64,000 bases of DNA from Abditibacteriota bacterium (GTDB lineage Bacteria; Armatimonadota; UBA5829): NCBI GenBank assembly GCA_942493375.1, contig OW818698.1, forward strand, positions 5,032,568 through 5,096,567. The letters are read 5' to 3'. The translations under genes and the position numbers were made by a program. Below are positions 4,231-35,754 of the stretch, piece after piece. The notes under the pieces were generated by a model, which saw only the letters and a list, made by a program, of their open reading frames with translations, was not told the origin of the DNA and made no database searches. Numbering within the stretch: the stretch's first letter is position 1; each line of letters opens with the position of its first letter.

Positions 4231-4370
4231 TGGAACAATGTCATCCTGAGTCCCCAAGTTGGGGGTGCCAACTTATTTCAATTAGAAACCTGTATTAGTC
4301 TTGGGAGGCCAAGTTGTGGTGCGGGCTTCTAGCCTGCGATCCCTTCGTTCCTCAGGATGACATTGTTCCA
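4231..4370. repeat. MITE/REP-like element with 20 bp perfect terminal inverted repeats (tggaacaatgtcatcctgag ... ctcaggatgacattgttcca).
   Basis: The terminal inverted repeats were read directly. The internal part contains cccttcgttcctcaggatgac, the same core found at 17108, 26284, 28756 and 35472. It lies in the divergent promoter region between the GH20-like gene and the LacI gene. Confidence 0.6.
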
Positions 4371-17107: not shown

Positions 17108-17147
17108 GGAATTTGTCATCCTTCGTTCCTCAGGATGACAAATTCCG
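17108..17147. repeat. Short palindromic member of the GTCATCCT..AGGATGAC repeat family.
   Basis: ggaatttgtcatccttcgttcctcaggatgacaaattcc. The arms gaatttgtcatcct / aggatgacaaattc are perfect. Confidence 0.55.
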
Positions 17148-17544: not shown

Positions 17545-18225
17545 TCATATATTCGTGAAACGGGTTTTCTGTGCTGGGGGTTTCAATCTACCAATCTGTG
17601 TGTTCTTGCCGGTTTCGGTTACTACGAAGGTTCCTCTTCCACGAATGACCAACGTATTCATGAATACCCGATTTTGGTTCTCCTCAGACAGAACGGACTG
17701 GTCATTTAGTTGCAGAGCATGCTTTGTTACGGGTTCTGAGTTGCCCGATAACGTTTCTTCCTGCACTACCAGATTTATAGCTTCGGTTAAACGACCATCA
17801 GCGGGTATTGTTTCTCCGGCTTGTATTCTCACGATGTCTCCTGGTACCAGCTGACTGACAGCTAACTGCAGCAATTTACCTCCGCGTATTCCTGTGCATA
17901 CGCTGAGATACTGGCCCCCGGATGAGATCAGTGATTGCCTGTATCGTCTTTTCAAAACTGAAGACGCAATTATCATTACTACACTAAGAATAGCAAAGCC
18001 TAGCGCGAACAGCAGGTCATATTCAACTGCCAAAACGATTCCTATGGCTAAGCAGACCAAACCAGTTGATCTTACATGCTGGTAAAATAAATATGGACGT
18101 TCTAATTCGTTGGTCCCATATTTACGAAGACGATCATAGGCCTCAACCTCGGACAATCCATAGTCAGAGTCAGTTTTCAGATTCTTTAATATGTCTTGTA
18201 TTTCGGATTCCCCGCGGTTAAGCAC
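17545..18225 (-). pseudogene. N-terminal fragment of a second P-type ATPase (cation-ATPase-N plus actuator domain only).
   Basis: LSEVEAYDRLRKYGTNEL is the cation ATPase N-terminal domain. GETIPADGRL...LSGNSEPVTKH is the actuator domain. The ORF stops after 226 aa, before any DKTGT motif. The downstream sequence encodes an unrelated gene. Confidence 0.5.
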
Positions 18226-20470: not shown

Positions 20471-20771
20471 AAGAAACTTCAACAGGATGGACGCATCTAA
20501 TTTTGTACACGAGAGAATAGGCCGGGATATACTGCGGGAATGCCGGTTTTACTGGATGTTCCGAATCATGTCTATGCTCAATTCCCGCAGTATATCCCTT
20601 GGTTACTGTTTGCCCTGGCAACTTCACATAATTCCTCTCTCCCACATTCAATATCTACTACACAGTCTGCAAATATCCTTGACTCAAAAAGACTAGCTGT
20701 GCTAGAGTCTCGTACCAGTGGTTCCTAATAAAGGAATAATTCGGTAAGGTCCCACTAATCGGAGGCAGTAA

Positions 20772-23114
20772 TTGAAAAACATGTTCCTGGTGATATTGAT
20801 GGTTTTGGTAAGTTGTGTAATCACAAATGCCGCAACTACCAAAAATCTAAAACTTGCTGCTAATAAGAAATCCAGCTATGTTATTGCTGTATCAAATAAG
20901 CAGATTCCGTCCGAAGTCACAGCTTCAAAAGAACTGCAGACTTATATATTGAAAGCTACCGGAGTTAAGCTTCCGATTATAAAAGAATCGAAACTCAAAC
21001 CCGGAACTGCTGCCATAATGCTTGGGCCGACCAAGTTTGCTGGTAAAAAAGGCATTTCACCTAAAGGAACAGAGCAGTGGGTAATAAAAACTGTCGGAAA
21101 CCGGCTGGTGCTGGCAGGCGGCAGACCGCGGGGCACTCTTTATGCTGTCTATCATTTCCTCGAGGATGTAATGGGTATCCGATGGTGGACTATCTGGGAT
21201 GAGACAGTACCAAAACGCAATATATTGTCCATAGGCACTCTCAATCTATCCGGCACTCCCGGATTTGCTTATCGAGAGATCTATGATGCAGAGCTTTCCT
21301 GGCCCAAGGAATTCTATGCAAGAAACCGAGTCAATGGGCACTATTCATTCATACCGTTGTCGTATGGCGGAACGCTTCAATACGGGCTGCCTTACCACGT
21401 GCACACATTCAGCCGATATTTCCCTCCGGAGCAATACTTTGCAACTCATCCGGAATACTATGCCCTCACAAACGGCAAACGAAATCCCCAGGGGCAACTC
21501 TGTCTGACGAACAAGGACTTATTCAATGCATGGGTTGCCAAAATGAAAGACTATATCAAGACTTCCTATGCTGATGCAGACAAACAGGGATTACCCCGTC
21601 CTGTTTACTTCTCGATCTCTCAGAATGACTGGGAAGGCAGCTGCGAGTGTGATAACTGCAAAGCTATTTTCGACAAGGAAGGCCATTCCGGTCTGTCTCT
21701 GATGTTTGTCAATGCTGTGGCAGAAGAGATTGAGAAGGAATACCCCGAAATCCTCGTAGATACCCTCGCATACTGGTTTTATGAAGAAGCCCCCAAGACC
21801 ATCAAACCCCGCGACAATGTCCGGATACGTCTGTGCGATGTCGGGGAGGACGTCATGCACCCGATAACCCATCCGAACAATAAAAATGGTCTGAGGCGTT
21901 TGCAGGACTGGTATAAAATCACCAAACATCTCAACATATGGAAATATGGTGTCATTTATACTCCCAACCTCCCCACGCCTACTCAGTTGGACTATTCAGA
22001 TGATGTCAAGACATACAAGAAGTACGGCGTAGAGGGGGTTTTTATCGAGGTTGAGAATATAATGACCACGGATATGTGGGATATGAAAGCCTGGATGCTG
22101 GCTAAGCTGTATGAAAACCCATATGCAGATTCTAATAAGCTTGTTAAGGAGTTTACGGAAGGTTTCTATGGACCAGCTGGCAAGTATATCAGGGATTATC
22201 TCAATTTAGTTCACAAAGCTTTGCAGGACAAACCCAGCTATATCAACTTTGGCGGAACACCTTCGGGATACACGTTTATGTCACTGGATGTCGTTCGCAA
22301 GTGCAATGAACTATTTGATAGAGCTGAAGCTGCTGTAGCAAATAAACAGGCGTATCTGGACCGGGTTCAACTGGCAAGAACATCACTGGACAGGACTATA
22401 TGCTACCGATCTGCAGAATTGAACAGAGAATATGTGAAGAACGGTAAACAGGGCGAGTTTGGCCTGTCAGTTGAAACATCCAGCAAGAGAGCTGCTGCAG
22501 TTCTGCGAAAAATGGCAGATACCAGGTTCGCAGGCCGAAAACAGTTCGCTCAACATGCCTATGATCAGGCGACTGCACTGGAGATGATTACAGTGTTCTC
22601 AAAACCTGCTAAATTACCGGAACAGTTTGCTAACCTGCCGGTTGACACTGTGTTTGATTGCTCCCCCAGTTATTTCAGGCTCAGCGGAGTTTCACTGATA
22701 AAGGACACAGAAGCAGCATATGGTTCTGCAGCGAAACTCGATTTAGCAGGTAACGCAGATGCAGCTAGATACCTTGTGACTCCAACTCAGGGCATGCCAA
22801 TGGGAGTCTATAATGTTGCGGAAAAGCTCCATGGTATGACTACCACTGTTACGTATGACCAGATCAAACCTGGTTACAACTTCTACAAACTTGGACCGAC
22901 CAAGTTCAAACCATCTGAATATTTTTACCTGTTCTGGAGCTGGGTGATTCAAGCTGATTTGGATACTGCTATGAATGACAATCCTGATCAATTATACGAA
23001 GTCTATGCTTCGGTGAAGTTCGAAGGCCCCTCCTTCCCAACCGGAGACCCGACAAAAACAGATGCGATTCTGGTAGACCGGATTATCGTTGTTCAGGTGA
23101 AGAGAAATAATTGA
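20772..23114 (+). CDS. Secreted DUF4838/GH20b-like putative glycoside hydrolase, tandem paralog 1 of 5.
   Basis: TTG start after ggaggca. Signal peptide. GRPRGTLYAVYHFLEDVMGIRWW. Conserved SQNDWEGSCECDNCKA. Length 780 aa. Confidence 0.65.
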   Translation: MKNMFLVILMVLVSCVITNAATTKNLKLAANKKSSYVIAVSNKQIPSEVTASKELQTYILKATGVKLPIIKESKLKPGTAAIMLGPTKFAGKKGISPKGTEQWVIKTVGNRLVLAGGRPRGTLYAVYHFLEDVMGIRWWTIWDETVPKRNILSIGTLNLSGTPGFAYREIYDAELSWPKEFYARNRVNGHYSFIPLSYGGTLQYGLPYHVHTFSRYFPPEQYFATHPEYYALTNGKRNPQGQLCLTNKDLFNAWVAKMKDYIKTSYADADKQGLPRPVYFSISQNDWEGSCECDNCKAIFDKEGHSGLSLMFVNAVAEEIEKEYPEILVDTLAYWFYEEAPKTIKPRDNVRIRLCDVGEDVMHPITHPNNKNGLRRLQDWYKITKHLNIWKYGVIYTPNLPTPTQLDYSDDVKTYKKYGVEGVFIEVENIMTTDMWDMKAWMLAKLYENPYADSNKLVKEFTEGFYGPAGKYIRDYLNLVHKALQDKPSYINFGGTPSGYTFMSLDVVRKCNELFDRAEAAVANKQAYLDRVQLARTSLDRTICYRSAELNREYVKNGKQGEFGLSVETSSKRAAAVLRKMADTRFAGRKQFAQHAYDQATALEMITVFSKPAKLPEQFANLPVDTVFDCSPSYFRLSGVSLIKDTEAAYGSAAKLDLAGNADAARYLVTPTQGMPMGVYNVAEKLHGMTTTVTYDQIKPGYNFYKLGPTKFKPSEYFYLFWSWVIQADLDTAMNDNPDQLYEVYASVKFEGPSFPTGDPTKTDAILVDRIIVVQVKRNN

Positions 23115-23215
23115 ACAGGATTAATGGGAATTGCAGGATAGACAGGATTATTTGGGACGCATCGTTTTAAGTGCGTCCCAAAAATACACGAAAGTCCATC
23201 ACAAGGAAATGATTA

Positions 23216-23845
23216 ATGAATGATTCTTCTAAGTGGTTCAAGAAATTACCAAACGAACTAGTAGTAGAAACCGTAATCGAAGAAGCACCAAAGATACTGG
23301 GCAAATGGAATCCAACCATATACAAGGATTCCGATTATGGATGTTGTATAAATACAGATAATTCCAGGATTCATATCGGTTGTAACCGTAATTATTTAGG
23401 CACTACTCTTAAATCACCAACTGAGACTGCTATATATGAGGACATTGAGCTGGACTCAGTGCTAGAGGCGCTTTTTCCGGAATTGCCGGATACAGTAACT
23501 AAGCCACGTTATTTATTTGCCAATTATGTAATTCCAAGCGAAGTTACAAGACATCTGAATCTGATTGCAGGATACTGTTATCCGTTACTTGATGGTGACA
23601 AGAATGCCTGGTTATCTTTTGAGAATTGGAAGATAACCAGGGGTGGCCGTATGAGAACACCTGGGCAAACAATCGAGGATCATCTTAGAGAGTTGAAGCA
23701 ACAAGCTGAAATTGCATGTTCAAGACGTAAATTTTGGACTGCGTTTGAATTTTATACAGAGTATAAAGATGCTGGGGGTAGAATGACTCTCAAAGACAGA
23801 TGGCATTTATACCTATTATCAAGACATACTTTTCTATTACGATAA
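23216..23845 (+). CDS. Hypothetical protein, AT-rich insert between paralogs 1 and 2.
   Basis: Clean 209 aa ORF, visibly AT-richer than the flanking genes. No recognised motif. Confidence 0.45.
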   Translation: MNDSSKWFKKLPNELVVETVIEEAPKILGKWNPTIYKDSDYGCCINTDNSRIHIGCNRNYLGTTLKSPTETAIYEDIELDSVLEALFPELPDTVTKPRYLFANYVIPSEVTRHLNLIAGYCYPLLDGDKNAWLSFENWKITRGGRMRTPGQTIEDHLRELKQQAEIACSRRKFWTAFEFYTEYKDAGGRMTLKDRWHLYLLSRHTFLLR

Positions 23846-23903
23846 TAGAAATAGGCACAATCCTATCTGATATCAATATCATAAAACAGATTGGAGGCAG
23901 GCA

Positions 23904-26249
23904 TTGAATAGAGTATTGATTTTTGCATTATTGATAGTATTATCTTCCGGGGTTGTCGAAGCTGCGGTTGTACCTGCAAAAGGACTCAAGTTAGTTGCAA
24001 ATGGAAAATCCAGTTATGTGATTGTCTCGCCGGATGTGCCGATACCTTCCGAGGTTACAGCTTCAACAGAACTGCAGACATATATTCGCCAGTCCACTGG
24101 AGTAAGTCTACCTATTATAAACCAGTCAAGCCTCAAGAGCGGGGCTCCTGCAATTATGATTGGCTCAACCAGATTTGCTGAAAAGGTTGGCATCACACCC
24201 AAGGGGCCTGAGAAATGGGTTATCAAGACAGTTGGCAACCGGCTGGTGCTGACAGGCGGACGGCCACGGGGCACGCTATATGCTGTCTACCATTTCCTCG
24301 AGGATGTTATGGGTGTTCATTGGTGGACGATGTGGGAAGAAACTGTGCCCAAGCTGGCAGTGTTATCTGTAGGCACCCTGGATTTATCCGGTGAACCAGG
24401 GTTTTCATACAGAGACATATATGATGCAGAGATACCCTGGCCCAAAGAGTTCTGCGCCAGGAACCGGTTAAACGGGCATTTTTCTATGATACCCTGGCAA
24501 TATGGCGGTGCAATTCAATATGGGCCACCATACCATGTACATACATTCAATCTATACTTCCCCCCGGGTGAATATTTCGCCAACCATCCTGAATATTTCT
24601 CTCTTTCAAAGGGCCAGAGAGTATACAATGGTCAGCTCTGTCTTACGAACCCGGATGTGCTCAGCGAATGGATACTCAAGATGAAGGATTACATCAAGAC
24701 TTCATATGCTGAAGCTGATAAGAGGGGAGTTCCCAGGCCTCTTTACTTCTCGGTCTCTCAAAATGACTGGGAAGGCAGCTGTGAGTGTGATAACTGCAAA
24801 GCTATCTACGAAAAAGAAGGGCACTCGGGTTTGTCCCTGATGTTTGTGAATGATATAGCAGAGGAGATCGAGAAGGAATATCCCGATGTCCTTGTTGATA
24901 CACTTGCTTACTGGTTCTATCAGGATGCTCCAAAGACCATAAAACCACGAGACAACGTAAGGATCCGGCTGTGTGATTCGAGTGAAGACATATTCCATTC
25001 GATTACTCACACTGGCAACAAAGCTGGTCTCAGACGGCTGAAAGCATGGTCAAAGATCACCAAACACCTCGATATCTGGAAATACGGCGTCGTATACAGT
25101 CCAAATCTCCCCACACCCAGCCAGTTGAACTATTCCGATGATGTAAAGGAATACAAAATGGCCGGTGTGCAGGGAATGTTCATGGAGTTCGAGAACGTAT
25201 TGACTACCGACATGTGGGATATGAAAGCCTGGATGCTGGCTAAGTTATATGAAAACCCTTACGCAGATTCGGATACCCTTGTTAAGCAGTTCACTGCTGG
25301 CTACTACGGCTCCGCAGGCCAATATATCCGTGAATATCTGATCACTCTGCAGAAAGCGCTTCACGATGAACCCAGCTATATTAACTTTACAATGGGAACG
25401 TCTGAGTATAAGTTTATGAAACTGGATGTCGTCCGGAAGTGTAATGAACTTTTCGATAAAGCTGAAGCCTCTGTAGCGGACAACCAGATAATATTGGACC
25501 GTGTCCTATTTGCAAGGACATCTCTGGACAGGACTATCTGTTTCCGCTCTGCTGAACTCTATGATGAATATGTGAATGGCGGCAAAAAAGGCGATTACGG
25601 CCTTTCTACTGTTAAATCAAGCAGGAGAGCTTCCGATATATTGCTCAAAATGGCCATTGCAAGATTTGCCGGTCGTAAACAATATGCAGCGCATGCATAT
25701 GATCAGATAACTGCATTGGGCAAATTTACTGCTTTCTCGAAGCCTGCGGTAATCCCGGACCAGTTTGTGAACCTGCCACCGGATACAGTATTTGAGTGTT
25801 CCCCAAAATACTTCCGGTTGGTTGGTTCGACAATTGTCAATGACCCATCAGCTGCATTCGGAATTGCAGCAAAACTGGACCTGGCATCTACCGGCGGGGA
25901 TGCAGCAAAGTATCTGGTAACTCCAACTCAAGGGATGCTTATAGGACAATACAATGCTGTAGAGAAAGTAGAAGCCGGTTCTACAACAATAACCCGGGAC
26001 GCCATAAAGCCTGGTTATAACTTCTATAAATTTGGCCCGAGGAAGTTCAAACCATCAGAGTTCATTTATCTGTTCTGGAGCTGGGGGATACAGGTTGATG
26101 TAGATTCGGCATTGAATAATAACCCTGATCAGGACTATGATGTGTATGTTTCAGTCAAGTTCGAAGGCCCATCATTCCCGAATGGAGACCCAACCCAACC
26201 AGACTCGATATCCGTGGACAGAGTTATAGTTGTGCAGGTAAAGAGTTAA
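23904..26249 (+). CDS. Secreted DUF4838/GH20b-like putative glycoside hydrolase, tandem paralog 2.
   Basis: TTG start after ggaggca. Signal peptide. About 75% identity to paralog 1 over the core. Confidence 0.65.
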   Translation: MNRVLIFALLIVLSSGVVEAAVVPAKGLKLVANGKSSYVIVSPDVPIPSEVTASTELQTYIRQSTGVSLPIINQSSLKSGAPAIMIGSTRFAEKVGITPKGPEKWVIKTVGNRLVLTGGRPRGTLYAVYHFLEDVMGVHWWTMWEETVPKLAVLSVGTLDLSGEPGFSYRDIYDAEIPWPKEFCARNRLNGHFSMIPWQYGGAIQYGPPYHVHTFNLYFPPGEYFANHPEYFSLSKGQRVYNGQLCLTNPDVLSEWILKMKDYIKTSYAEADKRGVPRPLYFSVSQNDWEGSCECDNCKAIYEKEGHSGLSLMFVNDIAEEIEKEYPDVLVDTLAYWFYQDAPKTIKPRDNVRIRLCDSSEDIFHSITHTGNKAGLRRLKAWSKITKHLDIWKYGVVYSPNLPTPSQLNYSDDVKEYKMAGVQGMFMEFENVLTTDMWDMKAWMLAKLYENPYADSDTLVKQFTAGYYGSAGQYIREYLITLQKALHDEPSYINFTMGTSEYKFMKLDVVRKCNELFDKAEASVADNQIILDRVLFARTSLDRTICFRSAELYDEYVNGGKKGDYGLSTVKSSRRASDILLKMAIARFAGRKQYAAHAYDQITALGKFTAFSKPAVIPDQFVNLPPDTVFECSPKYFRLVGSTIVNDPSAAFGIAAKLDLASTGGDAAKYLVTPTQGMLIGQYNAVEKVEAGSTTITRDAIKPGYNFYKFGPRKFKPSEFIYLFWSWGIQVDVDSALNNNPDQDYDVYVSVKFEGPSFPNGDPTQPDSISVDRVIVVQVKS

Positions 26250-26283
26250 TATAATAAGACACAAGATCCCACATCGTTCACGC

Positions 26284-26369
26284 GCCATTGTCATCCTGAG
26301 GAACGAAGGATCTGCTTTTTCAGTGAACCATGGTAAAGCAGATCCTTCGTTCCTCAGGATGACAATGGC
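26284..26369. repeat. Perfect 35 bp-arm inverted repeat of the GTCATCCTGAGGAACGAAGGATCTGCTTT family.
   Basis: gccattgtcatcctgaggaacgaaggatctgcttt ... aaagcagatccttcgttcctcaggatgacaatggc. Lies between paralogs 2 and 3. Confidence 0.7.
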
Positions 26370-26388
26370 GCATAATTGGAGTAAATAA

Positions 26389-28731
26389 TTGAAATCAATT
26401 CTTCTATTAATAATGGTAATGATTGTATCGGGAGGTGTAGCCGGAGCTGCATCTGTTGTGAAGCTTAAAATAGCAGCGAATGGTATATCTAAATATGTGA
26501 TTGCAGCTGCTGATAATCAGATACCTTCTGAGATCACAGCTTGCAAAGAGCTCCAGACATACATAGCAAAGTCCACCGGGGTTACGCTTCCGATCATCAA
26601 GGAATCGGAATTGAAGCCTGGCTCTTTAGCAATCATTGTTGGGCAGAGTAAAGCCGCACGCTCTGCAGGGATTATTCCCAAAGGACCGGAGCAGTGGGTG
26701 ATCAAGACAGTTGGCAACAGATTGCTTCTGACCGGGGGTAGACCGCGAGGCACTCTTTATGCTGTTTATCATTTTCTTGAGGATATAGTAGGAGTTCACT
26801 GGTGGACGATATGGGATGAAACAGTGCCAAAACGGACTGTTTTATCTGTTGGGCATCTCAATCTATCCGGACAGCCCAGTTTTGATTCAAGAGAGATATA
26901 CGATGGAGTTATGCCGTGGCCTAAAGAGTTCTATCCCCGGAACAGAGTCAATGGATGCTATTCGCTGACCCCATGGGAATACGGTGGGACTCTTCGATAT
27001 GGACCACCGGACCAGGCGCACACATGCAGCATGTATTTCCCACCGGCAAAGTATTTCGGGACCCATCCTGAGTATTATGCTCTCATAGATGGAAAACGCT
27101 CTCCCAATGGCCAGCTCTGCTTGACTAATAAAGACCTGATCAATGAGTGCATAGCCAAGGTTAAGGAGAGCATCAGGTCATCTTATGCAGAATCAGACAG
27201 CAAGGGTATCCCCCGGCCTGTTTTCTATGCTGTTTCACAAAATGATACTACAGGCAACTGTGAGTGTGATTCATGTAAAGCTGTGTATAAAAAGGAAAAC
27301 GCATCAGGCCTGTCTCTTTCATTTGTAAACGCTGTAGCTGATGGTGTTGAGAAGGAATATCCCGAGGTTCTTATAGATACACTGGCATACTGGTTCTACC
27401 AGGAAGCCCCAAAGACCATCAAACCCCGGGACAACGTGAGAATCCGTCTGTGCGATATGGATGAAGATATAATGCACTCCATCATCCATAAGAACAACAA
27501 GAATGGCTTGAGGCGGTTGGGTGATTGGTCGAAGATTACCAGGCACCTGAATATCTGGAAATATGGAGTCATCTACAGTCCAAATCTTCCTACGCCCAGC
27601 ATGCTGAATGCAGCAGACGATGTCCGGACATACAAGAAGTATGGAGTAGAGGGTATATTCACTGAGCTTGAGAACATAATGACTACAGATATGTGGGAAA
27701 TGAAAGCCTGGATGCTGGCTAAACTATATGAAAACCCATATCTGGATACCGAAACTCTCGCTAAGACATTTACAGATGGCTACTATGGTCCGGCTGGCAA
27801 GTATATTAATCAATATGTCCACCTGGTTCATAAAGCCCTGGATGAGAAACCAGATTCCCTCAACTTTGGCGGAAATCCATCCGGGTATTCATTCATGACG
27901 CTTAATTTGACCCGCAAGTGCAATAAGCTGTTTGATGATGCTGAAGCGTCTGTGGTTAATAACCAAACGTTGCTGGATAGAGTTCAGCTGGCCAGGACAT
28001 CTCTGGACCGGACTATCACTTATCGTTCAGTTGAGTTATACAGAGAATATAAAAAAACCGGAAAAAAAGGAGACTATGGCCTGTCGGTTGAGACATCAAC
28101 TCGAAGAGCGTCTGCCATTATCCGCAAAATGACTGATGCCAGGTTTGCTGGTCTTGGTGGGTATGTGCAATATGCTTATGACCAGGCGGATGCATTGGGA
28201 AAGCTTACTGCTTTCTCAAAACCTGTCCCTCTTCCGGAGCAGTTTGCAAAATTACCGGAGGATACTGTTTATGACTGTGCGCCAGTATACTTCAGACTGT
28301 CTGGGGTGAACATAGTGAAAGATCCTGCTGCAGCTTTCGGGGCAACGGCAAAACTGGACATATCATCTGCCGGAGCAGAATCCTCAAGGTATCTAATAAC
28401 ACCTACTCAAGGCATGATAATGGGTTTCTATAACGTTGGCGATAGGACCCATGGCAAGGTAGCAACCCTTATGCCAGGTGATATAAGACCTGGATATAAC
28501 TTCTATAAACTCGGACCTGCAAAGTTCAAGCCCCAGGAGTATTTCTATTTGTTCTGGAGTTGGGTGATACAGGCTGATCTGGGTTTTGCAATGAATGATG
28601 ATCCAAACCAGGAGTATGAGGTATACGTCTCAATAAAATTCGAAGGCCCCTCTTTTCCAACCGGAGACCCAACCAAACCCGACGCCATACTAGTGGACAG
28701 ATTAATAGTGGTGCAGGTGAAGAGTAAATAA
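26389..28731 (+). CDS. Secreted DUF4838/GH20b-like putative glycoside hydrolase, tandem paralog 3.
   Basis: TTG start. Signal peptide. Conserved core and NCECDSCKA motif. Confidence 0.65.
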   Translation: MKSILLLIMVMIVSGGVAGAASVVKLKIAANGISKYVIAAADNQIPSEITACKELQTYIAKSTGVTLPIIKESELKPGSLAIIVGQSKAARSAGIIPKGPEQWVIKTVGNRLLLTGGRPRGTLYAVYHFLEDIVGVHWWTIWDETVPKRTVLSVGHLNLSGQPSFDSREIYDGVMPWPKEFYPRNRVNGCYSLTPWEYGGTLRYGPPDQAHTCSMYFPPAKYFGTHPEYYALIDGKRSPNGQLCLTNKDLINECIAKVKESIRSSYAESDSKGIPRPVFYAVSQNDTTGNCECDSCKAVYKKENASGLSLSFVNAVADGVEKEYPEVLIDTLAYWFYQEAPKTIKPRDNVRIRLCDMDEDIMHSIIHKNNKNGLRRLGDWSKITRHLNIWKYGVIYSPNLPTPSMLNAADDVRTYKKYGVEGIFTELENIMTTDMWEMKAWMLAKLYENPYLDTETLAKTFTDGYYGPAGKYINQYVHLVHKALDEKPDSLNFGGNPSGYSFMTLNLTRKCNKLFDDAEASVVNNQTLLDRVQLARTSLDRTITYRSVELYREYKKTGKKGDYGLSVETSTRRASAIIRKMTDARFAGLGGYVQYAYDQADALGKLTAFSKPVPLPEQFAKLPEDTVYDCAPVYFRLSGVNIVKDPAAAFGATAKLDISSAGAESSRYLITPTQGMIMGFYNVGDRTHGKVATLMPGDIRPGYNFYKLGPAKFKPQEYFYLFWSWVIQADLGFAMNDDPNQEYEVYVSIKFEGPSFPTGDPTKPDAILVDRLIVVQVKSK

Positions 28732-28755
28732 TACCAGGTATCGTCATAATTACCA

Positions 28756-28837
28756 TGTCATCCTGAGGAACGAAGGATCTGCTTTTGGACATTTAGCTCA
28801 ACCATAAAGAGCAGATCCTTCGTTCCTCAGGATGACA
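28756..28837. repeat. Inverted repeat of the same family (28 bp arms).
   Basis: tgtcatcctgaggaacgaaggatctgct ... agcagatccttcgttcctcaggatgaca. Lies between paralogs 3 and 4. Confidence 0.7.
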
Positions 28838-28854
28838 ATTTTCGGAGGCAACAG

Positions 28855-31194
28855 TTGAAAACTATACTCTCGTTAATGCTAGCACTAATTGTATTGAGCA
28901 GTATCACCAACGCTGCACCGACTGCAAAGCTCAAATTGGTTGAAAATGGCAGGTCGGAGTATGTGATTGCTACAGCCGGGAATCAGATACCTGCTGAGAT
29001 TACAGCTTCAAAAGAACTGCAGGCATACATAAGTAAGTCTACCGGAGTGATGCTTCCGATTATCAAGGAATCTGAACTTAAGCCCGGCGCTCCGGCTGTA
29101 GTAGTTGGGCAGACAAACATTGCACGCTCTGCCGGGATCATCCCCAAAGGCTCTGAGCAGTGGGTTATTAAGACCATTGGTAACAAGCTGGTGCTTACGG
29201 GCGGTAGGCCGAGGGGAAGTCTATACGCTGTTTACCATTTCTTGGAAGATAATCTGGGTATCCGGTGGTGGACTATATGGGATGAATCGGTTCCGAAACA
29301 CGGCTCTATCATCCTGACTGATATCAACCGGTCCGGGCAGCCCACATTTTCATACCGGGAAATATTCGACTGCCTGATCCCCTGGCCTAAGGAGTTTTAT
29401 GCAAGAAATAGAGTCAATGGAGAGTTTTCGGGGATTCCTATTGAATATGGCGGGACTGTTATGTATGGTCCACCTTCTCATGTGCATACATTCAACAGGT
29501 ATTTCCCTCCAGAGGAGTATTTTGAAGCCCATCCGGAATGGTTCGCTCTTTCAAAAGGCAAAAGAGATCCCCAGGGGCAACTTTGTCTGACAAACACAGA
29601 ACTGTTCGATGCCTGGGTAGCCAAGATGAAGGGTTTTATAAAGACATCTTATGCAGCAGCAGATCAGAAAGGCATAGAGAGACCTGCATTCTTCTCGATT
29701 TCAGCAAATGACAGCCTGGGTGGCTGCGAATGTCACAACTGTAAAGCTATCATCGACAAAGAGAATGAGTCCGGGCTTTCACTGTGGTTCGTAAACAAAG
29801 TTGCTGATGAGATCCGGAAAGAGTATCCCGAAATACTGGTTGATACCCTTGCATACTGGTTTTATGTGGAAGCTCCAAAGACCATCAAGCCCCGGGACAA
29901 CGTGCGAATACGCCTGTGTGATTTTATTGAGGATATACTGCACGGGATCAATCATAATAACAACAAGGATGGTTTGAGGCGTTTAAAAGAGTGGTCAAAA
30001 ATCACCAAACACCTTGCTATCTGGAAATATGGGGTAATTTACTCTCCGAACCTTCCTACACCGAGCATGCTTTATTTCTCAGATGACGTCAAGACCTATA
30101 AAAAATATGGAGTCGAAGGCGTGTTCTTTGAGTTTGAATATGCGATGACTACTGATATGTGGGATATGAAGACCTGGATGTCAGCCAAGCTTTATGAAGA
30201 CCCGGATGCTGATTCCACTAAGCTGGTTAAGGAGTTCACCGATGGTTTCTACGGGCCAGCCGGTAAATATATCCGGGAGTATCTCAACGTAACGCATGAA
30301 GCTCTGCAAAAGATACCAAGCAGTATCAACTTCGGTGGAAATATATCAGGATACAACTTCCTCACGCTGGATGTCGTTCGCAAGTGCAGTGCTCTGTTCG
30401 ATAAAGCTGAGGCGTCTGTAACCCACAACCAGACGCTGCTGGACCGTGTTCAGTTTGCAAGAACATCCCTGGACAGGACAATCTGTTACAGGTATGCCAA
30501 CCTGCAGAAAGACTTCCGAAAAGCTGGCAGCAAGGGTGAGTTCGGACTGTCTGTTTCAGACTCAGCAATAAGAGCAGCTGCAATCCTGCGCAAAATAGCC
30601 GGTACAAGGTTCGCCAATTACCCGGATTCTGCAAAGGACGCATATGATCAAGCAACTGCCCTGGACCAGTACTCTTATATAACCAAGCCTGCCTCCTTGC
30701 CCAAACAGTTCGCGTCGTTGCCTGCAGACACAGTGTTCGACTACTCTCCGAACGCATTCCGTCTTGTAAGCACTCCGAAAATGACCAAAGACACCCAAGC
30801 AGCATATGGATTCGCAGCAATGATAGACGTGTCAGCTGCAGGTAAAGATACATCCAGATACATGATAACCCCGACTCAGGGAATGCCGATGGGCAGCTAC
30901 AACATCCAGGACAAAGTAGAATCCACACCAGCAATGATATTCCCAGACGATATCAAACCCGGTTACAATTTCTACAAGCTGGGCCTGGTCAAGTTCAAAC
31001 CGACAGAATATTTCTACCTCCTATGGAGCTGGACAATCCAACTGGACCTGACAACAGCCATGAACAACAACCCAAACCAGGAATACGAAGTCTACGCCTC
31101 AATAAAATTCGACGGTCCATCCTTCCCAAAAGGCAACCCATCAAAACCGGATTCGATTTGGGTAGATAGGATAATCGTGGTGCAGAAGCAGTGA
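28855..31194 (+). CDS. Secreted DUF4838/GH20b-like putative glycoside hydrolase, tandem paralog 4.
   Basis: TTG start after ggaggca. Signal peptide. Conserved core and GCECHNCKA motif. Confidence 0.65.
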   Translation: MKTILSLMLALIVLSSITNAAPTAKLKLVENGRSEYVIATAGNQIPAEITASKELQAYISKSTGVMLPIIKESELKPGAPAVVVGQTNIARSAGIIPKGSEQWVIKTIGNKLVLTGGRPRGSLYAVYHFLEDNLGIRWWTIWDESVPKHGSIILTDINRSGQPTFSYREIFDCLIPWPKEFYARNRVNGEFSGIPIEYGGTVMYGPPSHVHTFNRYFPPEEYFEAHPEWFALSKGKRDPQGQLCLTNTELFDAWVAKMKGFIKTSYAAADQKGIERPAFFSISANDSLGGCECHNCKAIIDKENESGLSLWFVNKVADEIRKEYPEILVDTLAYWFYVEAPKTIKPRDNVRIRLCDFIEDILHGINHNNNKDGLRRLKEWSKITKHLAIWKYGVIYSPNLPTPSMLYFSDDVKTYKKYGVEGVFFEFEYAMTTDMWDMKTWMSAKLYEDPDADSTKLVKEFTDGFYGPAGKYIREYLNVTHEALQKIPSSINFGGNISGYNFLTLDVVRKCSALFDKAEASVTHNQTLLDRVQFARTSLDRTICYRYANLQKDFRKAGSKGEFGLSVSDSAIRAAAILRKIAGTRFANYPDSAKDAYDQATALDQYSYITKPASLPKQFASLPADTVFDYSPNAFRLVSTPKMTKDTQAAYGFAAMIDVSAAGKDTSRYMITPTQGMPMGSYNIQDKVESTPAMIFPDDIKPGYNFYKLGLVKFKPTEYFYLLWSWTIQLDLTTAMNNNPNQEYEVYASIKFDGPSFPKGNPSKPDSIWVDRIIVVQKQ

Positions 31195-31281
31195 GATGGT
31201 GATACGACTTCGATTTTCTCGAATCTATGCAAGTAATAGAGCGAAACAATGGAAAAGTGTCAATAATATAGTACGAAAAAC

Positions 31282-31310
31282 TTGACATAATAATTGCCGA
31301 TGGACATAAT
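31282..31310 (+). promoter_or_regulatory. Near-consensus sigma70-type promoter for the AbiE operon, with a GACATAAT direct repeat.
   Basis: TTGACA at 31282-31287, a 17 nt spacer, then CATAAT at 31305-31310. GACATAAT occurs twice, 23 bp apart. Confidence 0.5.
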
Positions 31311-31321
31311 GAATAGAGAGT

Positions 31322-32068
31322 ATGCACTATAGGATTAACACTATGCAATCCACAAACATGGATAAAAAAGAGAGATCAGTTGCATCGCAAGTCAGGAAGA
31401 TTATCTCTCAGTCGCCTGATAGCATCTGGACTTACACGGACTTTCATGATTTACCGCTTATGGCAGTTAGTCAGGCTTTGTCGCGGCTCCATCGAGAAGG
31501 AATGGTAAAACGGGTAAGAAAAGGGCTTTATTATCACCCAAAACAGACTGTTTTAGGTGAAAGTAGTGTTTCACCCGTTGCTTTGAGTTCGAAGCTTCTT
31601 TCCAGCGATGCCCGGCCTACTGGATATACTGCTGCACGGGTGCTTGGGTTAAACACCCAAGTTCCAGTTGAGCCGTCCTATGCGATTTCCAAGACTAAAG
31701 CACCTGCAAGCATAGCTGGTGTAAAACTGACTGTCCGTCGTCCTTTACCAACTCTCCATATAAGCACACGTGAAGCTGCTATCCTGGAGTTTTTGCGTGA
31801 AAGAGGGGAGACAAGTGAGTTGTCTCCCGAGAAGACCGTTAAAAGACTCCTGGATATTGTCAGAGAAACAGGAATATTCACCAACCTTACCGAAGCATCA
31901 ATGCATGACCCCCCACGAGTACGGGCTATGCTCGGGGCATTGGGGGAGGAAGCTAATAATGAACAACGAGAACTGATGAAGCTAAAATTATCACTCAACC
32001 CACTATCCAGGTATGATTTCGGGAGATTGAAATGTTTGAAATACGCTAAGGAGTGGCAAGCAAAATGA
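31322..32068 (+). CDS. abiEi: AbiEi-family antitoxin / transcriptional regulator (type IV toxin-antitoxin or abortive-infection system).
   Basis: Size and sequence resemble AbiEi/DUF6088 antitoxins. Its stop overlaps the downstream gene start in ATGA. The true start may instead be the Met at 31343. Confidence 0.55.
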   Translation: MHYRINTMQSTNMDKKERSVASQVRKIISQSPDSIWTYTDFHDLPLMAVSQALSRLHREGMVKRVRKGLYYHPKQTVLGESSVSPVALSSKLLSSDARPTGYTAARVLGLNTQVPVEPSYAISKTKAPASIAGVKLTVRRPLPTLHISTREAAILEFLRERGETSELSPEKTVKRLLDIVRETGIFTNLTEASMHDPPRVRAMLGALGEEANNEQRELMKLKLSLNPLSRYDFGRLKCLKYAKEWQAK

Positions 32069-33042
32069 TGCTACATGAGCATGATGATTTTGGCCCGATA
32101 TTGACCGAAGCGACTGCCTGGCTAAGGGGAAAACCTGGTTTTGAACGTATTACTACTCAGATTGTAGAGAAAGATTACTATGTAACTCAAGTATTGCGTA
32201 TTATCGCAGCTAAGCTGGGTGAAACAGTCCTGTTCAAGGGTGGTACAAGTCTTTCAAAAGGTTGGGGATTGATCCAGCGATTTTCTGAGGATGTTGATCT
32301 TTTTTTGAATCCGAAAGCTTTTGATCCTCCATTGGGAGAAAGCAGAATACAAAAGAAACTGCTTGAAATGAGAGATATAGTTGGAGGTAGGCAGGGACTT
32401 ACCTGGCTGCGAAATGACTCCAGAGTTGATAAAAAATCACGTGCCGATGTGTATTCCTATAATGCTAAGTATGAAATTAATTCCGAGATACCATCTGAAG
32501 TATTGATGGAGGCGGGCGTCAGGAGTGGGTATTTTCCCAGTGTGCAGGTGAACTTGGATTCTTATGTGGGAGAGTTTCTACGCAGTAAAGGTTTGGATAA
32601 CATTGCTGAAGATATCAGTCTTTTTCCAATGATGTTGTTGCACTTCAAACGCACTTTTATTGAGAAGCTGTTCACAGTATATTCCAAGGTAGAACTGATG
32701 TTGAATCATAATGAATCGAGTCTTGGTGACAACGCTAGACATTACTATGATTTGGTTCAACTCGCACGTACACCGGAGGTTCAGGAACTGTTAAGATCAC
32801 CTTATGAGATAGCAGAGATCATCGAAAATTATTATGCAATTACTCAGAAGCATTTTCCAAAAAGTCCACTTCCTGACACACACCGTCTATGTGATAGCAG
32901 GGCACTTTTTCCGGATAAGGACCTTAGGCATATCTTGGCAAATGCATACAAAATACAGTGCGATAGGCTATGTTATACGTACAATTACCCATCTTTTGAT
33001 GAGGTTTTAGGTGAGTTTGAGAAGATGCGTGAGTTTATATGA
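32065..33042 (+). CDS. abiEii: AbiEii/AbiGii-family nucleotidyltransferase toxin (DUF1814).
   Basis: KGGTSLSK followed by RFSEDVDLF gives the GS...DxD nucleotidyltransferase motif. The ATG at 32065 overlaps the AbiEi stop. RBS aaggag. Confidence 0.65.
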   Translation: MMLHEHDDFGPILTEATAWLRGKPGFERITTQIVEKDYYVTQVLRIIAAKLGETVLFKGGTSLSKGWGLIQRFSEDVDLFLNPKAFDPPLGESRIQKKLLEMRDIVGGRQGLTWLRNDSRVDKKSRADVYSYNAKYEINSEIPSEVLMEAGVRSGYFPSVQVNLDSYVGEFLRSKGLDNIAEDISLFPMMLLHFKRTFIEKLFTVYSKVELMLNHNESSLGDNARHYYDLVQLARTPEVQELLRSPYEIAEIIENYYAITQKHFPKSPLPDTHRLCDSRALFPDKDLRHILANAYKIQCDRLCYTYNYPSFDEVLGEFEKMREFI

Positions 33043-33130
33043 TTATCGCAATAAAATAAAGTATGTATGAAAACAGTATCGCCGTGTATTACCTGAATGG
33101 GCTATATTTCAGTTTTCGAAGGGGGATGAC

Positions 33131-35398
33131 TTGATGTCACTTGAAATAACCGTAAATGGCAAATCTGAATACGTAATCGCTGCCTCAGAGGACCAGATTC
33201 CATCTGAAATTACAGCATCAAAGGAATTGCAGACATACATAGCCAAATCCACCGGAGCAACGCTGCCGATTGTCAATGAATCGGACATAAAGCCGGATGC
33301 ACCAGCTATATTAGTTGGACGAACAGATTTTGCTAAGTCTGCCGGACTAATCCCCGATGGAGAAGAGCAGTGGGTTATTAAGACTATTGGCAACCGGTTG
33401 GTCCTCACAGGGGGCCGTCCGAGAGGCACTCTGTATGCTGTCTATCACTTCCTGGAAGACCATCTGGGTGTGCGGTGGTGGACTATATGGGATGAGACTG
33501 TTCCCAACCATAGCAGCTTATCAATAGCAGATACCGACCGTTCGGGTGAACCGGGGTTTGCTTACCGGGATATATATGATGCCGAGGTCCCATGGCCCAA
33601 AGAGTTCTACGCACGGAACAGAGTCAACGGCCACTTCTCGTTTGTTCCATGGGAGTATGGCGGGACTATCCAGTATGGTCCTCCTCACCATGTGCATACA
33701 TTCGACCACTACTTCCATCCGGACGAATACTACGATACCCATCCTGAGTATTTCTCCCTGTCCAAAGGCGAACGCATCCGCAATGGCCAGCTCTGTCTCA
33801 CTAACAAGGATGTATTCAAAGAGTGGATAGCTAAGATGAAGGAATACATCAAGACTTCATATGCTGAGGCAGACAGTAAGGGCGAACCCAGGCCTGTTTT
33901 CTTCTCGATCTCCCAGAACGATTGGGAAGGCAGCTGCGAGTGCGACTGCTGCAAAGCTATCTATGAAAAAGAGAACCACTCCGGGCTCTCATTAATGTTC
34001 GTAAACGCTGTCGCAGCAGAGATCGAAAAGGAATATCCCGAAGTCCTGATCGATACCCTGGCATACTGGTTCTACGAAGAAGCTCCCAATTCTATCAAAC
34101 CGCGGGACAACGTAAGGATACGGGTTTGTGATTTTGGTGAGGATGTCATGCATCCTATTACCCACGAAAACAACAAGCAGGGCCTCAGAAGACTGGGTGA
34201 ATGGGCGAAGATCACCAAACACACAAACATCTGGAAATACGGGGTCATATACTCTCCGAACCTGCCTATCCCCAGCCAGTTGGACTATGCCGAAGATGTC
34301 AAAGCATACAAAGCTAACGGTGTAGAGGGAGTATTCATAGAGCTGGAAAACATAATGACTACAGACATGTGGGAGATGAAAGCATGGATGCTGGCGAAGC
34401 TCTACGAAGACCCGTATGCTAACTCCGAAGCCCTGGTAAATGACTTCACCAACGGTTACTACGGCCCCGCTGGCCTCTATATCCGTGAATACCTAAATGC
34501 AACACACGATGCCTTGCAGAAAACTCCAAGCTATATAAACTTCGGAGGGACTGCATCTAAGTATTCCTATATAACTTATGACCTGATCCGCACCTGCAAC
34601 GCAATATTTGAAAAGGCAGAAGCTGCTGTATTGGGTGATGAATTCCTATTAGACAGAGTCAGGATGGCCAGAACATCAGTAGACAGGGCAATCTGTTACA
34701 GGACAAAAGACCTTGTGAATGAGTATGAAAACGGCGGAAGCAAAGGCGATTTCGGCCTTTCGGTGGAAGTCTCATCCAAGAGGGCATCTGCCATACTCCG
34801 CAAAATATCTGATCTCAGGTTTGGTGATTGTCAAAAACACGCGCGAGATGGATATGACCAGGCAGGTGTGCTTGAAATGGTCTCCAGCCTACCAGTATCA
34901 GTCCCGCTGCCTGAACAGTTTGCAGCAATGCCAAAGGACAATGTCTTCGATTTCTCCCCCAAAGACTTCAGGCTGGTTGGCCCGATAGTAGTCAAAGACC
35001 CTGGAGCTGACTTCGGAGCTGCTGCCAAACTGGACTACGTAATGTCCGGTTCAGATGCAGCGAAGTTCATAGTATCAGAAACAGAAGGCATGCCGATGGG
35101 CCTCTGCAACGTCAGCGAACACGTATTCGGGGAGACCAGATACATTAAACAGGGAGACATCAAACCTGGATACACCTACTACAAACTCAATAAAGCCAAG
35201 TTCCACCCGTCCGAGTATTTCAACATGTTCTGGGACTGGACATTGCAGCTGGACCTGACCCCAACAATGAATGAAAACCTCGACCAGGAATACGAAATTT
35301 ACGCATCCATAAAATTCGAAGGACCTTTGTTCTCCAACGGAGAACCAGCAAACACGAATGGGATATATGTGGAGAGGATAATAGTTGTTCGAGTCTAG
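33131..35398 (+). CDS. DUF4838/GH20b-like paralog 5, N-terminally truncated (no signal peptide). Possibly non-secreted or a decaying copy.
   Basis: Begins LMSLEITVNGKSEYVIA, which aligns to residues about 26 onward of paralog 4. An in-frame TGA lies 21 codons upstream. No hydrophobic leader. The core is intact. Confidence 0.55.
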   Translation: MMSLEITVNGKSEYVIAASEDQIPSEITASKELQTYIAKSTGATLPIVNESDIKPDAPAILVGRTDFAKSAGLIPDGEEQWVIKTIGNRLVLTGGRPRGTLYAVYHFLEDHLGVRWWTIWDETVPNHSSLSIADTDRSGEPGFAYRDIYDAEVPWPKEFYARNRVNGHFSFVPWEYGGTIQYGPPHHVHTFDHYFHPDEYYDTHPEYFSLSKGERIRNGQLCLTNKDVFKEWIAKMKEYIKTSYAEADSKGEPRPVFFSISQNDWEGSCECDCCKAIYEKENHSGLSLMFVNAVAAEIEKEYPEVLIDTLAYWFYEEAPNSIKPRDNVRIRVCDFGEDVMHPITHENNKQGLRRLGEWAKITKHTNIWKYGVIYSPNLPIPSQLDYAEDVKAYKANGVEGVFIELENIMTTDMWEMKAWMLAKLYEDPYANSEALVNDFTNGYYGPAGLYIREYLNATHDALQKTPSYINFGGTASKYSYITYDLIRTCNAIFEKAEAAVLGDEFLLDRVRMARTSVDRAICYRTKDLVNEYENGGSKGDFGLSVEVSSKRASAILRKISDLRFGDCQKHARDGYDQAGVLEMVSSLPVSVPLPEQFAAMPKDNVFDFSPKDFRLVGPIVVKDPGADFGAAAKLDYVMSGSDAAKFIVSETEGMPMGLCNVSEHVFGETRYIKQGDIKPGYTYYKLNKAKFHPSEYFNMFWDWTLQLDLTPTMNENLDQEYEIYASIKFEGPLFSNGEPANTNGIYVERIIVVRV

Positions 35399-35471
35399 GG
35401 GTGGTTTTAACCGATTTCATGTTTTTGGACAGGATCAACAAGATTTTCAAGATTAACAGGAAGGGAATTGT

Positions 35472-35546
35472 TTGTAACAGTTCAGAGTTGCCGGAATTTG
35501 TCATCCTCAGGATGACAAATTCCCATGTTACTGTACTGTTACAATT
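35472..35546. repeat. Palindromic element of the TTGTAACAGTTCA...GTCATCCTCAGGATGAC family.
   Basis: ttgtaacagttcagagttgccggaatttgtcatcctcaggatgacaaattcccatgttactgtactgttacaa. The left arm matches 4211-4250. Confidence 0.6.
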
Positions 35547-35666: not shown

Positions 35667-35700
35667 AATCCTGTTAATCTTGTTAATCTGTCAAAAAAAG
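35667..35700 (+). promoter_or_regulatory. Upstream motif shared with 38054..38096 (CCTGTTAATCTTGTTAATCTGTCAAAAAAA).
   Basis: Near-identical 35-40 nt motif 55 nt upstream of the 35755 start and 69 nt upstream of the 38165 start. Confidence 0.45.
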
Positions 35701-35754
35701 AATTGCAATATTTATCATCCGGGTGTGGTGTTGTAACTGCGAAAGGAACTGAAT

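Follow-up and report, generated by a model that had tools for sequence, protein, structure and literature searches.

Five genes on the forward strand of the analysed window (the whole 64-kb stretch of DNA) are likely to encode functional, long-separate paralogs of a four-domain DUF4838 glycoside hydrolase, and the same degree of confidence applies to the explanation given here as a whole. The copies were produced by a tandem-duplication burst whose unit carried the Shine-Dalgarno (SD) site together with an unusual TTG start, the burst took place before at least two lineages, and probably three, diverged, and each copy has since been maintained under purifying selection. By analogy with characterised relatives, the products P1 to P5 are most likely five non-redundant retaining enzymes of the β-N-acetylhexosaminidase type. 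The region is a genuine but ordinary sugar-degrading gene cluster in which nothing is mechanistically unprecedented. DUF4838 was recognised as an enzyme family only a short time ago, with GH163 and GH185, and most of its diversity is unexplored; five co-located, long-conserved paralogs form a handy natural panel for mapping specificity residues in the DUF4838 fold.

An ancient array with lineage-specific spacer insertions

All five proteins (754–781 aa, all encoded on the + strand) match PF16126 (DUF4838) in a Pfam profile search with E-values of 7e-75 to 3e-82 and scores of 253–277 bits against a gathering cut-off of 26.6 bits, covering profile positions 1–325 of 325 and hence the full-length domain, which bears out their preliminary description as DUF4838 paralogs. 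In a related metagenomic genome each of the five copies has a 1:1 ortholog with 87–93% identity, and the gene order is the same. Copy 1 lies at 20772–23114 (780 aa; E 3e-82; ortholog 87% identical), copy 2 at 23904–26249 (781 aa; E 3e-77; 93%), copy 3 at 26389–28731 (780 aa; E 2e-76; 88%), copy 4 at 28855–31194 (779 aa; E 1e-79; 89%) and copy 5 at 33134–35398 (754 aa from ATG; E 7e-75; 90%). Pairwise amino acid identity among the paralogs is 61–70% rather than the 65–75% first claimed, and a repeat finder recovers five in-register copies with 62–75% nucleotide identity. Of the Pfam families proposed beforehand, DUF4838 was thus matched, while P1–P5 gave no match to Glyco_hydro_20 or Glyco_hydro_20b at E ≤ 0.01 and matched Glyco_hydro_67N only below its gathering score.

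The duplications are ancient, since synonymous sites between paralogs are saturated (pS 0.72–0.78), and for the same reason dN/dS along the paralogs is not computable. Bootstrap support is 100% for the five-paralog clade and 100% for each ortholog pair, and dN/dS between orthologs is 0.07–0.10.

The copies share one strand, as expected of the head-to-tail array described earlier, but the array is split between copies 1 and 2 by a 209-aa orphan ORF (23216–23845, +) and between copies 4 and 5 by an AbiEi antitoxin and AbiEii toxin pair (31322–33042, +). The 209-aa ORF has no match in Pfam, NCBIfam, PADLOC, PHROGs or plasmids, nor in the examined loci of relatives including the orthologous array, where an MFS/isochorismatase/MarR cassette takes its place. 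The AbiE pair was recognised by PADLOC (AbiEi E 2e-31, AbiEii E 7e-55) and Pfam (AbiEii E 8e-26) and has its own promoter-like site at 31282–31310 in a consensus scan. AbiEi occupies 31322–32068, AbiEii starts at 32053 or 32065 and ends at 33042, and the genes overlap, the adjacency expected of an AbiE type IV toxin-antitoxin system; if AbiEii uses the SD-supported ATG at 32065, its start and the AbiEi stop may overlap as ATGA at 32065–32068. The relative is without the pair, and 188 nt separate its copies 4 and 5. A REP/MITE-like perfect hairpin (26282–26371; 37-bp stem, -78 kcal/mol) in the spacer of copies 2 and 3 is missing from the relative's copy 2/3 spacer, and a second such hairpin lies between copies 3 and 4 (28756–28837; 31-bp stem, -60 kcal/mol). 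The spacers acquired the 209-aa ORF, the AbiE pair and the REP-like hairpins as lineage-specific insertions. Copy 1 is followed by a 12-bp GC-rich terminator-like hairpin in the RNA fold (23151–23182, +) and preceded by a promoter-like TTGACT-N18-TAGAGT with an upstream TG (20679–20708, +; consensus scan), about 64 nt before its start codon. A block of about 100 nt that contains this site recurs almost unchanged before copy 1 of the relative, despite different flanking genes.

Translation starts and predicted export

The preliminary description had all five genes starting at TTG and four of them following GGAGG, which holds for most but not all of the array. TTG is the start of copies 1 to 4, preceded by GGAGGCAGTAA in copy 1, GGAGGCAGGCA in copy 2, GGAGTAAATAA in copy 3 and GGAGGCAACAG in copy 4; GGAGG stands before copies 1, 2 and 4, but copy 3 has GGAGT. 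The longer context shared by copies 1, 2 and 4 was confirmed with a spacer of 4 nt instead of 5: GGAGGCA-N4-TTG has exactly three matches in the 64 kb, which are the starts of these copies, against a chance expectation of 0.14. A GGAG(G) SD site, a spacer and TTG are common to copies 1–4 and identical in their orthologs (as seen for the SD/TTG context of copy 2), the context of copy 4 recurs in a third lineage (L012), and more distant homologs with 54–59% identity have ATG starts. The proposal that the duplication unit included the translation-initiation region is therefore upheld. For copy 5 the start is most likely ATG at 33134, not TTG at 33131: in its ortholog an in-frame stop precedes the ATG start, and translation of copy 5 from ATG gives a protein of 754 aa that is 100% identical to a public one of that length (P0006).

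N-termini were judged by eye. Those of copies 1–4 resemble signal peptides, and LVSC at residues 12–15 of copy 1 also fits a lipobox. Inspection of copy 5 and its ortholog, in both genomes, revealed no signal peptide, and copy 5 is presumed to be cytoplasmic.

Fold, putative active site and related families

The AlphaFold (AF2) model of P1 (pLDDT 92.6) predicts four domains with a GH115/GH20/GH84-like fold, the best structural matches being GH115 and GH67. The predicted order is an N-terminal GH20b/GH67N/GH115N-like α/β domain, a (β/α)8 barrel, a helical bundle and a C-terminal β-sandwich. [quoted passage not shown] N285-D286 follow strand β4 in all five copies.

GH163 and GH185, both of which act on β-GlcNAc, have DUF4838 as their catalytic domain, and retaining, substrate-assisted catalysis has been shown for GH185. 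The GH163 founder, BT1035 of Bacteroides thetaiotaomicron, is an endo-β-N-acetylglucosaminidase on complex N-glycans, and the GH185 founder, Sp_0475 of Streptococcus pneumoniae, is an exo 6-sulfo-β-GlcNAcase. With these two characterised enzymes taken as the model, each array enzyme would work by substrate-assisted catalysis, retaining the configuration at the β-linked N-acetylhexosamine-type linkage that it cuts. The role of acid/base would fall to D286 in the loop that follows strand β4, and a Cys4 site, probably binding zinc, would brace this loop. GH163 enzymes have one Cys before α3 and a CxCxxC after β4, in the acid/base loop (PMC11776370). All five copies carry this cluster (C244 with C291/C293/C296), a likeness in pattern, and share with BT1035 a DUF4838 catalytic domain and, for the exported copies, secretion. 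Unlike BT1035, which carries an accessory C-terminal F5/F8 (discoidin) module, P1–P5 have a helical bundle and a β-sandwich of no assigned family; no F5/F8 type C module was found in them, Pfam giving only DUF4838 and the weak GH67N match. A further difference is that the present host lies outside the Bacteroidota and the array has no PUL context. GH185 members are cytoplasmic and without signal peptides (SSN cluster 3, PMC10570127), and have the CxCxxC without a Cys before α3; copies 1–4 differ on both counts, C244 being invariant, and only copy 5 is without a signal peptide. The active-site residues of Sp_0475 are Q174, H227, D309, Y436 and R633, and by order and similar spacing H211, D286 and Y392 are candidate counterparts of three of them (H–D distance 75 versus 82, D–Y 106 versus 127). 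GH20 and GH84 β-hexosaminidases share the (β/α)8 barrel, the N-terminal α/β domain and the position of the catalytic residues after β4, but P1–P5 have SQND in place of H-x-G-G-D-E and no Pfam GH20 match. The domain order of the GH115 and GH67 α-glucuronidases is the same; their N-terminal domain is detectable by sequence, and the barrel is without sequence similarity. We know of no Cys4 cluster in GH115.

Divergence of the copies and neighbouring genes

Mean paralog identity is 57% at residues ~481–720 (the helical bundle and the front of the β-sandwich) versus 70% at residues 25–480. The C-terminal divergence noted earlier is thus real but moderate; the last ~60 residues are conserved again and therefore nothing is hypervariable. 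The idea of diversifying selection there was not borne out, as ortholog dN/dS is ~0.10 in the C-terminal domains and 0.057 in the barrel, purifying throughout, and all windows beyond the signal peptide stay at or below 0.18. Fixed within orthologs and different among paralogs are 20–32% of columns; these are not limited to the C-terminus, and some adjoin putative catalytic loops and invariant residues (for example 190, 209–213, 284, 287 and 290), with position 287, beside D286, being W/W/T/S/W in copies 1–5. Because loop-flanking residues vary among paralogs yet are fixed within orthologs, copies 1–4 may have different sub-specificities, and the substitution patterns suggest that the paralogs differ in specificity.

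That the array is instead a dosage amplification of one enzyme in five redundant copies is very improbable. The copies do stand in tandem on the same strand with the same architecture and invariant residues, but their synonymous sites are saturated, all five are kept as 1:1 orthologs at low dN/dS, repeat comparison found no gene-conversion-like stretches that would homogenise the five paralogs, paralog-specific changes beside the catalytic loops are fixed in orthologs, and one copy differs in cellular location. It is rather unlikely that TTG in copies 1–4 is a neutral, hitch-hiking relic and not a selected feature. Start codons tend to be conserved in any case, and the sample is small, but TTG and 14–18 nt of SD and spacer are unchanged between orthologs while the adjoining spacer sequence has diverged, and no other TTG occurs among the SD-supported starts of the ~39 window ORFs. 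If ATG and GTG were equivalent, the chance of no T-to-A or T-to-G change at the first base of the start codon would be ~0.01 by our own estimate, over a tree length of at least ~7 synonymous substitutions per site.

Two further alternatives concern function. A quite possible one, though held at somewhat under even chances, is that relaxed constraint, or oligomer interfaces that have diverged so as to block mixed oligomers, and not diversification of substrate specificity, explains the higher C-terminal divergence. The modest regional difference in dN/dS is in line with this, the equivalent helical and β-sandwich domains of GH115 mediate dimerisation, and the fold match to GH115 covers more than 500 residues. 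Against it, R536, D540, R541, R573, R585, W724 and Q727 in these domains are family-invariant and the C-terminal R633 of Sp_0475 binds the substrate sulfate, so that both domains may have a part in the active site. It is improbable, but less so than dosage amplification, that the enzymes are no hexosaminidases and act on another linkage, as in a GH115/GH67-like α-glucuronidase, or with a new specificity. The diversity of DUF4838 is great, the GH115 α-glucuronidases, which rank highest in structural comparison, are inverting, and substrate and stereochemistry are extrapolated from relatives without direct sequence alignment; the two characterised DUF4838 enzymes favour the hexosaminidase reading.

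On that hexosaminidase reading, copies 1–4 would be exported via Sec and act, with different sub-specificities, on a glycan outside the cell or in the periplasm, and copy 5 would finish the imported oligosaccharides together with two glycosidase-like neighbours. The 544-aa cytoplasmic protein p544 (35755–37389, +), kept beside copy 5 and described as GH20b-like beforehand, has a GH20/GH84-like fold, a D254-E255 pair and a C219 plus CxCxxC cluster; it falls into no Pfam family, and over 1,700 homologs at 65–75% identity are spread across phyla. The 304-aa protein p304 (38165–39079, +), with the motif FHLGMDE, resembles small single-domain GH20 enzymes (phmmer E 0.003 to PDB 8bal, Niako3494, GH20, with the motif aligned). 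Their adjacency, kept in two lineages, suggests co-regulation with the array, and the split into exported and cytoplasmic enzymes with two unannotated GH20/84-like neighbours would sketch a HexNAc-glycan pathway in a little-studied lineage, probably one akin to Armatimonadota. The ~780-aa four-domain DUF4838 clade, with about 3,000 50%-identity clusters at E ≤ 1e-30, holds no characterised enzyme; it is a tentative suggestion, more doubtful than not, that this clade is functionally uncharted, that the five paralogs represent five specificities, one or more of them different from both known DUF4838 activities, and that p544 founds a new GH20/GH84-like family.

Positions 5515–7740 of the minus strand were confirmed to encode a distant sixth DUF4838 homolog of 741 aa, which matches PF16126 at E 2e-28 and aligns along its whole length in hhalign with 23% identity and a probability of 100%. 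It is without equivalents of H211, N285-D286, Y334, W390/Y392 and E426/E428 and is therefore probably not catalytic in the same way. As described beforehand, no SusC/SusD-type gene is present among the 48 larger window ORFs scanned with Pfam. The proposed link to a LacI regulator, an MFS permease and a GH20-like gene is weak, these lying 9–19 kb upstream behind unrelated genes and missing from the 10 kb that precede the orthologous array. In the relative, p304 is 98% identical, and the locus also carries GH123, GH42 and GH36 genes.

Layout, age and maintenance of the array

The tandem array of DUF4838 paralogs is real, and its preliminary description holds largely, with corrections, except for its claim of selection; the arrangement is an ordinary tandem-paralog one of an already known kind of enzyme, made up of proteins that are uncharacterised. 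The ORF map and Pfam place the five copies on the plus strand at 20772-23114 (P1), 23904-26249 (P2), 26389-28731 (P3), 28855-31194 (P4) and 33131/33134-35398 (P5). A repeat finder independently recovered five in-register copies at 62-75% nucleotide identity, whose starts lie 3138, 2479, 2466 and 4210 nt apart. The array is interrupted twice, by a 209-aa ORF (ORF209, 23216-23845) at the P1/P2 junction and by an AbiEi/AbiEii pair at the P4/P5 junction. An antisense ORF within copy 4 (30362-30934) was taken as spurious.

All five proteins match DUF4838 (PF16126) over all 325 model positions (E 7e-75 to 3e-82), as had been anticipated, whereas of the other Pfam families named beforehand Glyco_hydro_67N gives only a sub-gathering-score match to the N-terminal ~100 residues and Glyco_hydro_20b none in any copy. 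NCBIfam holds no model for P1, P5, ORF209, the neighbouring proteins p544 and p304, the distant sixth copy (P6), or the 594-aa (39232-41016) and 717-aa (8018-10171) ORFs. DUF4838 homologs are abundant: phmmer returned 12,374 50%-identity clusters with a cut-off of E<=0.001, and 3,001 when this was tightened to E<=1e-30. Many of them are of ~750-830 aa and match full-length.

Pairwise, the paralogs share 61-70% protein identity, rather than the 65-75% first given, and 65-70% nucleotide identity. Recent gene conversion was rejected by repeat comparison, no stretch among the five copies showing it. Between the paralogs, synonymous change has reached saturation (pS 0.72-0.78), which leaves the dN/dS scan originally proposed without a usable denominator; dN/dS was computed on ortholog pairs instead. 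These come from a metagenomic relative, found by homology search in three samples, which carries the same five genes (R1-R5) in identical order, with identities of 87% (P1-R1), 93% (P2-R2), 88% (P3-R3), 89% (P4-R4) and 90% (P5-R5); in the identity matrix all cross-pairs lie at 60-70%, giving clean 1:1 orthology. A neighbour-joining tree gives 100% bootstrap to the five-paralog clade and to each ortholog pair, with a single-copy gene (54-59% identity) as nearest outgroup, while the branching order of the paralogs is poorly supported (54-65%), which indicates that the duplications would have arisen as a burst. Each ortholog pair has a dN/dS of 0.07-0.10; since this is low in every copy, purifying selection maintains all five, and the array is thus shown to be intact, anciently duplicated and selectively maintained.

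P1 alone found no match when used as query of genome contigs, and a profile search of these returned distant loci only (a Verrucomicrobiota MAG at 54%, Paenibacillus at 39%, Faecousia at 38%). In the protein collection, P5 has a 100% identical match, a 754-aa product starting at ATG, and so has the P-type ATPase of the window; both matches come from the 8,198,536-bp NCBI contig on which the window lies. The closest match to P1 as query there is R1 at 87%, P1 itself not being among the matches, and the list from this P1 query contains no match identical to P2-P4.

Translation starts and array spacers

The pattern GGAGGCA-N4-TTG, for which 0.14 chance matches would be expected, occurs exactly three times in the window, namely at the starts of P1, P2 and P4. 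The longer start context described for these three copies is therefore shared, but with a spacer of N4; the N5 version given earlier has no match in the window. P3 has GGAGTAAATAA-TTG. In the relative, the Shine-Dalgarno sequence, spacer and TTG (14-18 nt) are identical for copies 1-4, the remaining spacer having diverged, and copy 4 of a third lineage (locus L012) has the same context. Since copies 1-4 and their orthologs have this context in common, the duplication unit did include the translation-initiation region, as proposed. Among ~39 ORFs of the window only P1-P4 have SD-supported TTG starts, and more distant homologs start at ATG. One gene caller chooses downstream starts for the same genes, and annotations therefore disagree. 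If ATG and GTG were equivalent, the chance of no change at the first base of TTG would by our estimate be ~0.01, given that the tree spans at least ~7 substitutions at each synonymous site, and TTG thus appears from these comparisons to be actively retained in copies 1-4. The claim that all five copies start at TTG most likely does not extend to P5, given the ATG of its public product and of R5, which begins two codons past an in-frame stop; in the window, the sequence upstream of P5 has been replaced by the AbiE insertion.

A block of ~100 nt upstream of P1, containing TTGACT-N18-TAGAGT, is conserved in the relative despite different flanking genes and therefore likely marks a promoter and, with it, where the array begins on its 5' side. 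A scan for consensus promoters and terminators showed no enrichment over shuffles, the copy 1 promoter being the only candidate to gain support, via conservation.

The array spacers act as insertion hot spots. The P4/P5 junction (31195-33133) holds the AbiEi/AbiEii type IV toxin-antitoxin pair (Pfam AbiEii E 8e-26; PADLOC AbiEi 2e-31, AbiEii 7e-55), whereas in the relative (L002 12347-12534) the same junction contains nothing but a G/C-rich hairpin, and in L012 (2704-3753) two small paralogous ORFs of 158 and 124 aa. At the P1/P2 junction lies ORF209; searches of PADLOC, PHROGs, plasmids and Pfam, the last even at E<=10, gave no match to it. In the relative, an MFS/isochorismatase/MarR cassette takes its place.

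Intergenic spacers are also occupied by REP/MITE-like palindromes (TGTCATCCTGAGG...CCTCAGGATGACA), at 26282-26371, 28756-28837, 35499-35517, 4239-4362 and 17128-17140 of the window and at ~1690-1751 of L013, a locus from a related lineage. In two copies the stems are perfect over 31-37 bp (-60 and -78 kcal/mol) and the 31-nt arms are identical. The palindromes are missing from the corresponding spacers of the relative and are found in a closer one. A second recurring motif, caggattaacaagattaacagga with its inverted partner tcctgttaatcttgttaatcctgt, lies 3' of several paralogs in all three lineages (window 23115-23150 and 35420-35460 / 35680-35710; L002 9861-9940; L012 ~225-320; L013 ~1625-1645). 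No Rfam family or tRNA gene was detected anywhere in the window.

Predicted structure, active site and divergence

Modelled with AlphaFold2 from 106 homologs (mean pLDDT 92.6), P1 is predicted to consist of a signal helix (residues 1-20), an α/β domain (25-135), a (β/α)8 barrel (~150-480), a helical bundle (485-610) and a β-sandwich (625-775). In GH163, a cysteine cluster consists of one Cys before α3 and a C-x-C-x-x-C after β4, on a loop that also bears the putative acid/base (PMC11776370). P1-P5 have both elements: C244 directly ahead of helix 248-272 and C291, C293 and C296 past strand 279-282 are invariant in the five copies and all 106 homologs, as are N285-D286 in the same loop and H211, Y334, W390, Y392, E426 and E428 at other strand ends. 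They differ in this from GH185, which lacks the first Cys (PMC11776370). With this invariant cluster and these active-site candidates, P1-P5 look catalytically competent and GH163-like. Signal-peptide-like N-termini are present in P1-P4, and no signal peptide was found in P5 or R5. Residues 12-15 of P1 (LVSC; window 20772-20820) fit a lipobox and are conserved in its ortholog, and the signal regions of P2-P4 contain no Cys; P1 may therefore be a lipoprotein and the other exported copies soluble.

The C-terminus had been proposed to be hypervariable and under diversifying selection. Mean paralog identity is 70% over residues 25-480 against 57% over residues 481-778, with a minimum of 50-56% at residues ~481-720 and a return to ~65% in the final ~60 residues, so the divergence is graded and moderate, short of hypervariability. 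Nor do the ortholog dN/dS values point to such selection (barrel 0.057, N-terminal domain 0.13, C-terminal domains 0.10-0.11), the signal peptide being the only region with a raised value (0.54). Interface drift or relaxed constraint was considered as the source of the C-terminal divergence. Columns constant within ortholog pairs yet variable between paralogs account for 20-22% of positions in the N-terminal domain and barrel; in the helical domain their share is 25%, and in the β-sandwich 32%. Several of them adjoin the invariant active-site candidates: position 287, next to D286, is W/W/T/S/W in P1-P5, position 284 changes from Q to A in P4, positions 209-213 read DQAHTC in P3 versus YHVHTF in most copies, and position 190 is H/H/C/E/H. 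If specificity diverged, the barrel loops would be at least as likely a seat as the C-terminus.

We infer that P1-P5 would hydrolyse β-HexNAc-type linkages with retention, D286 acting as acid/base and the four cysteines forming a structural site, probably for zinc. The exported copies, with distinct sub-specificities, would trim a HexNAc-containing glycan outside the cell or in the periplasm, and P5 would complete the breakdown in the cytoplasm together with p544 and p304. A non-HexNAc activity of P1-P5 was considered beside this proposal, as was redundancy for dosage in place of distinct sub-specificities.

Neighbouring genes

The p544 protein (35755-37389) has >1,700 homologs at 65-75% identity across Hydrogenedentes, Anaerolineae and other phyla, all labelled hypothetical, and no Pfam domain was found in the family. 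Given the GH20/GH84-like fold, the D-E pair and the Cys4 motif, these proteins may represent an undescribed glycoside hydrolase family; no consistent adjacency to DUF4838 genes was found in other taxa. The array is somewhat less novel than this unannotated family, the retention of TTG starts and the spacer hot spots. p304 (38165-39079) has the motif FHLGMDE, as in small single-domain GH20 enzymes, and a weak match to PDB 8bal (E 0.003), with no Pfam, NCBIfam or PHROG match; it is 98% identical to its ortholog versus 87-93% for its neighbours. The relative has extra genes here, GH36 upstream and GH123 and GH42 downstream.

The distant sixth copy reported at 5515-7740 (P6) is a full-length DUF4838 homolog, but lies on the minus strand and has lost most active-site candidates: the H211 segment and the equivalents of N285-D286, Y334, W390/Y392 and E426/E428 are missing, whereas it is still similar at the level of the fold and retains a signal peptide and some of the Cys motif. 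With nearly all candidates lost, P6 may be a pseudo-enzyme or a binding protein. The LacI, MFS and GH20 genes assigned to the same glycan-degradation locus are weakly linked to the array: they lie 9-19 kb upstream, past a TrbI-like gene, a P-type ATPase and a two-component pair, and none occurs within 10 kb of the orthologous array. The described absence of SusC/SusD genes was borne out, Pfam finding none among the 48 larger ORFs of the window. The best named matches of the P-type ATPase are Armatimonadota MAGs (79% identity). Adjoining the full-length ATPase gene (14341-16941), a 226-aa ORF on the minus strand (17545-18225) encodes only the N-terminal part of such an enzyme (Cation_ATPase_N and part of E1-E2) and is probably a gene fragment.
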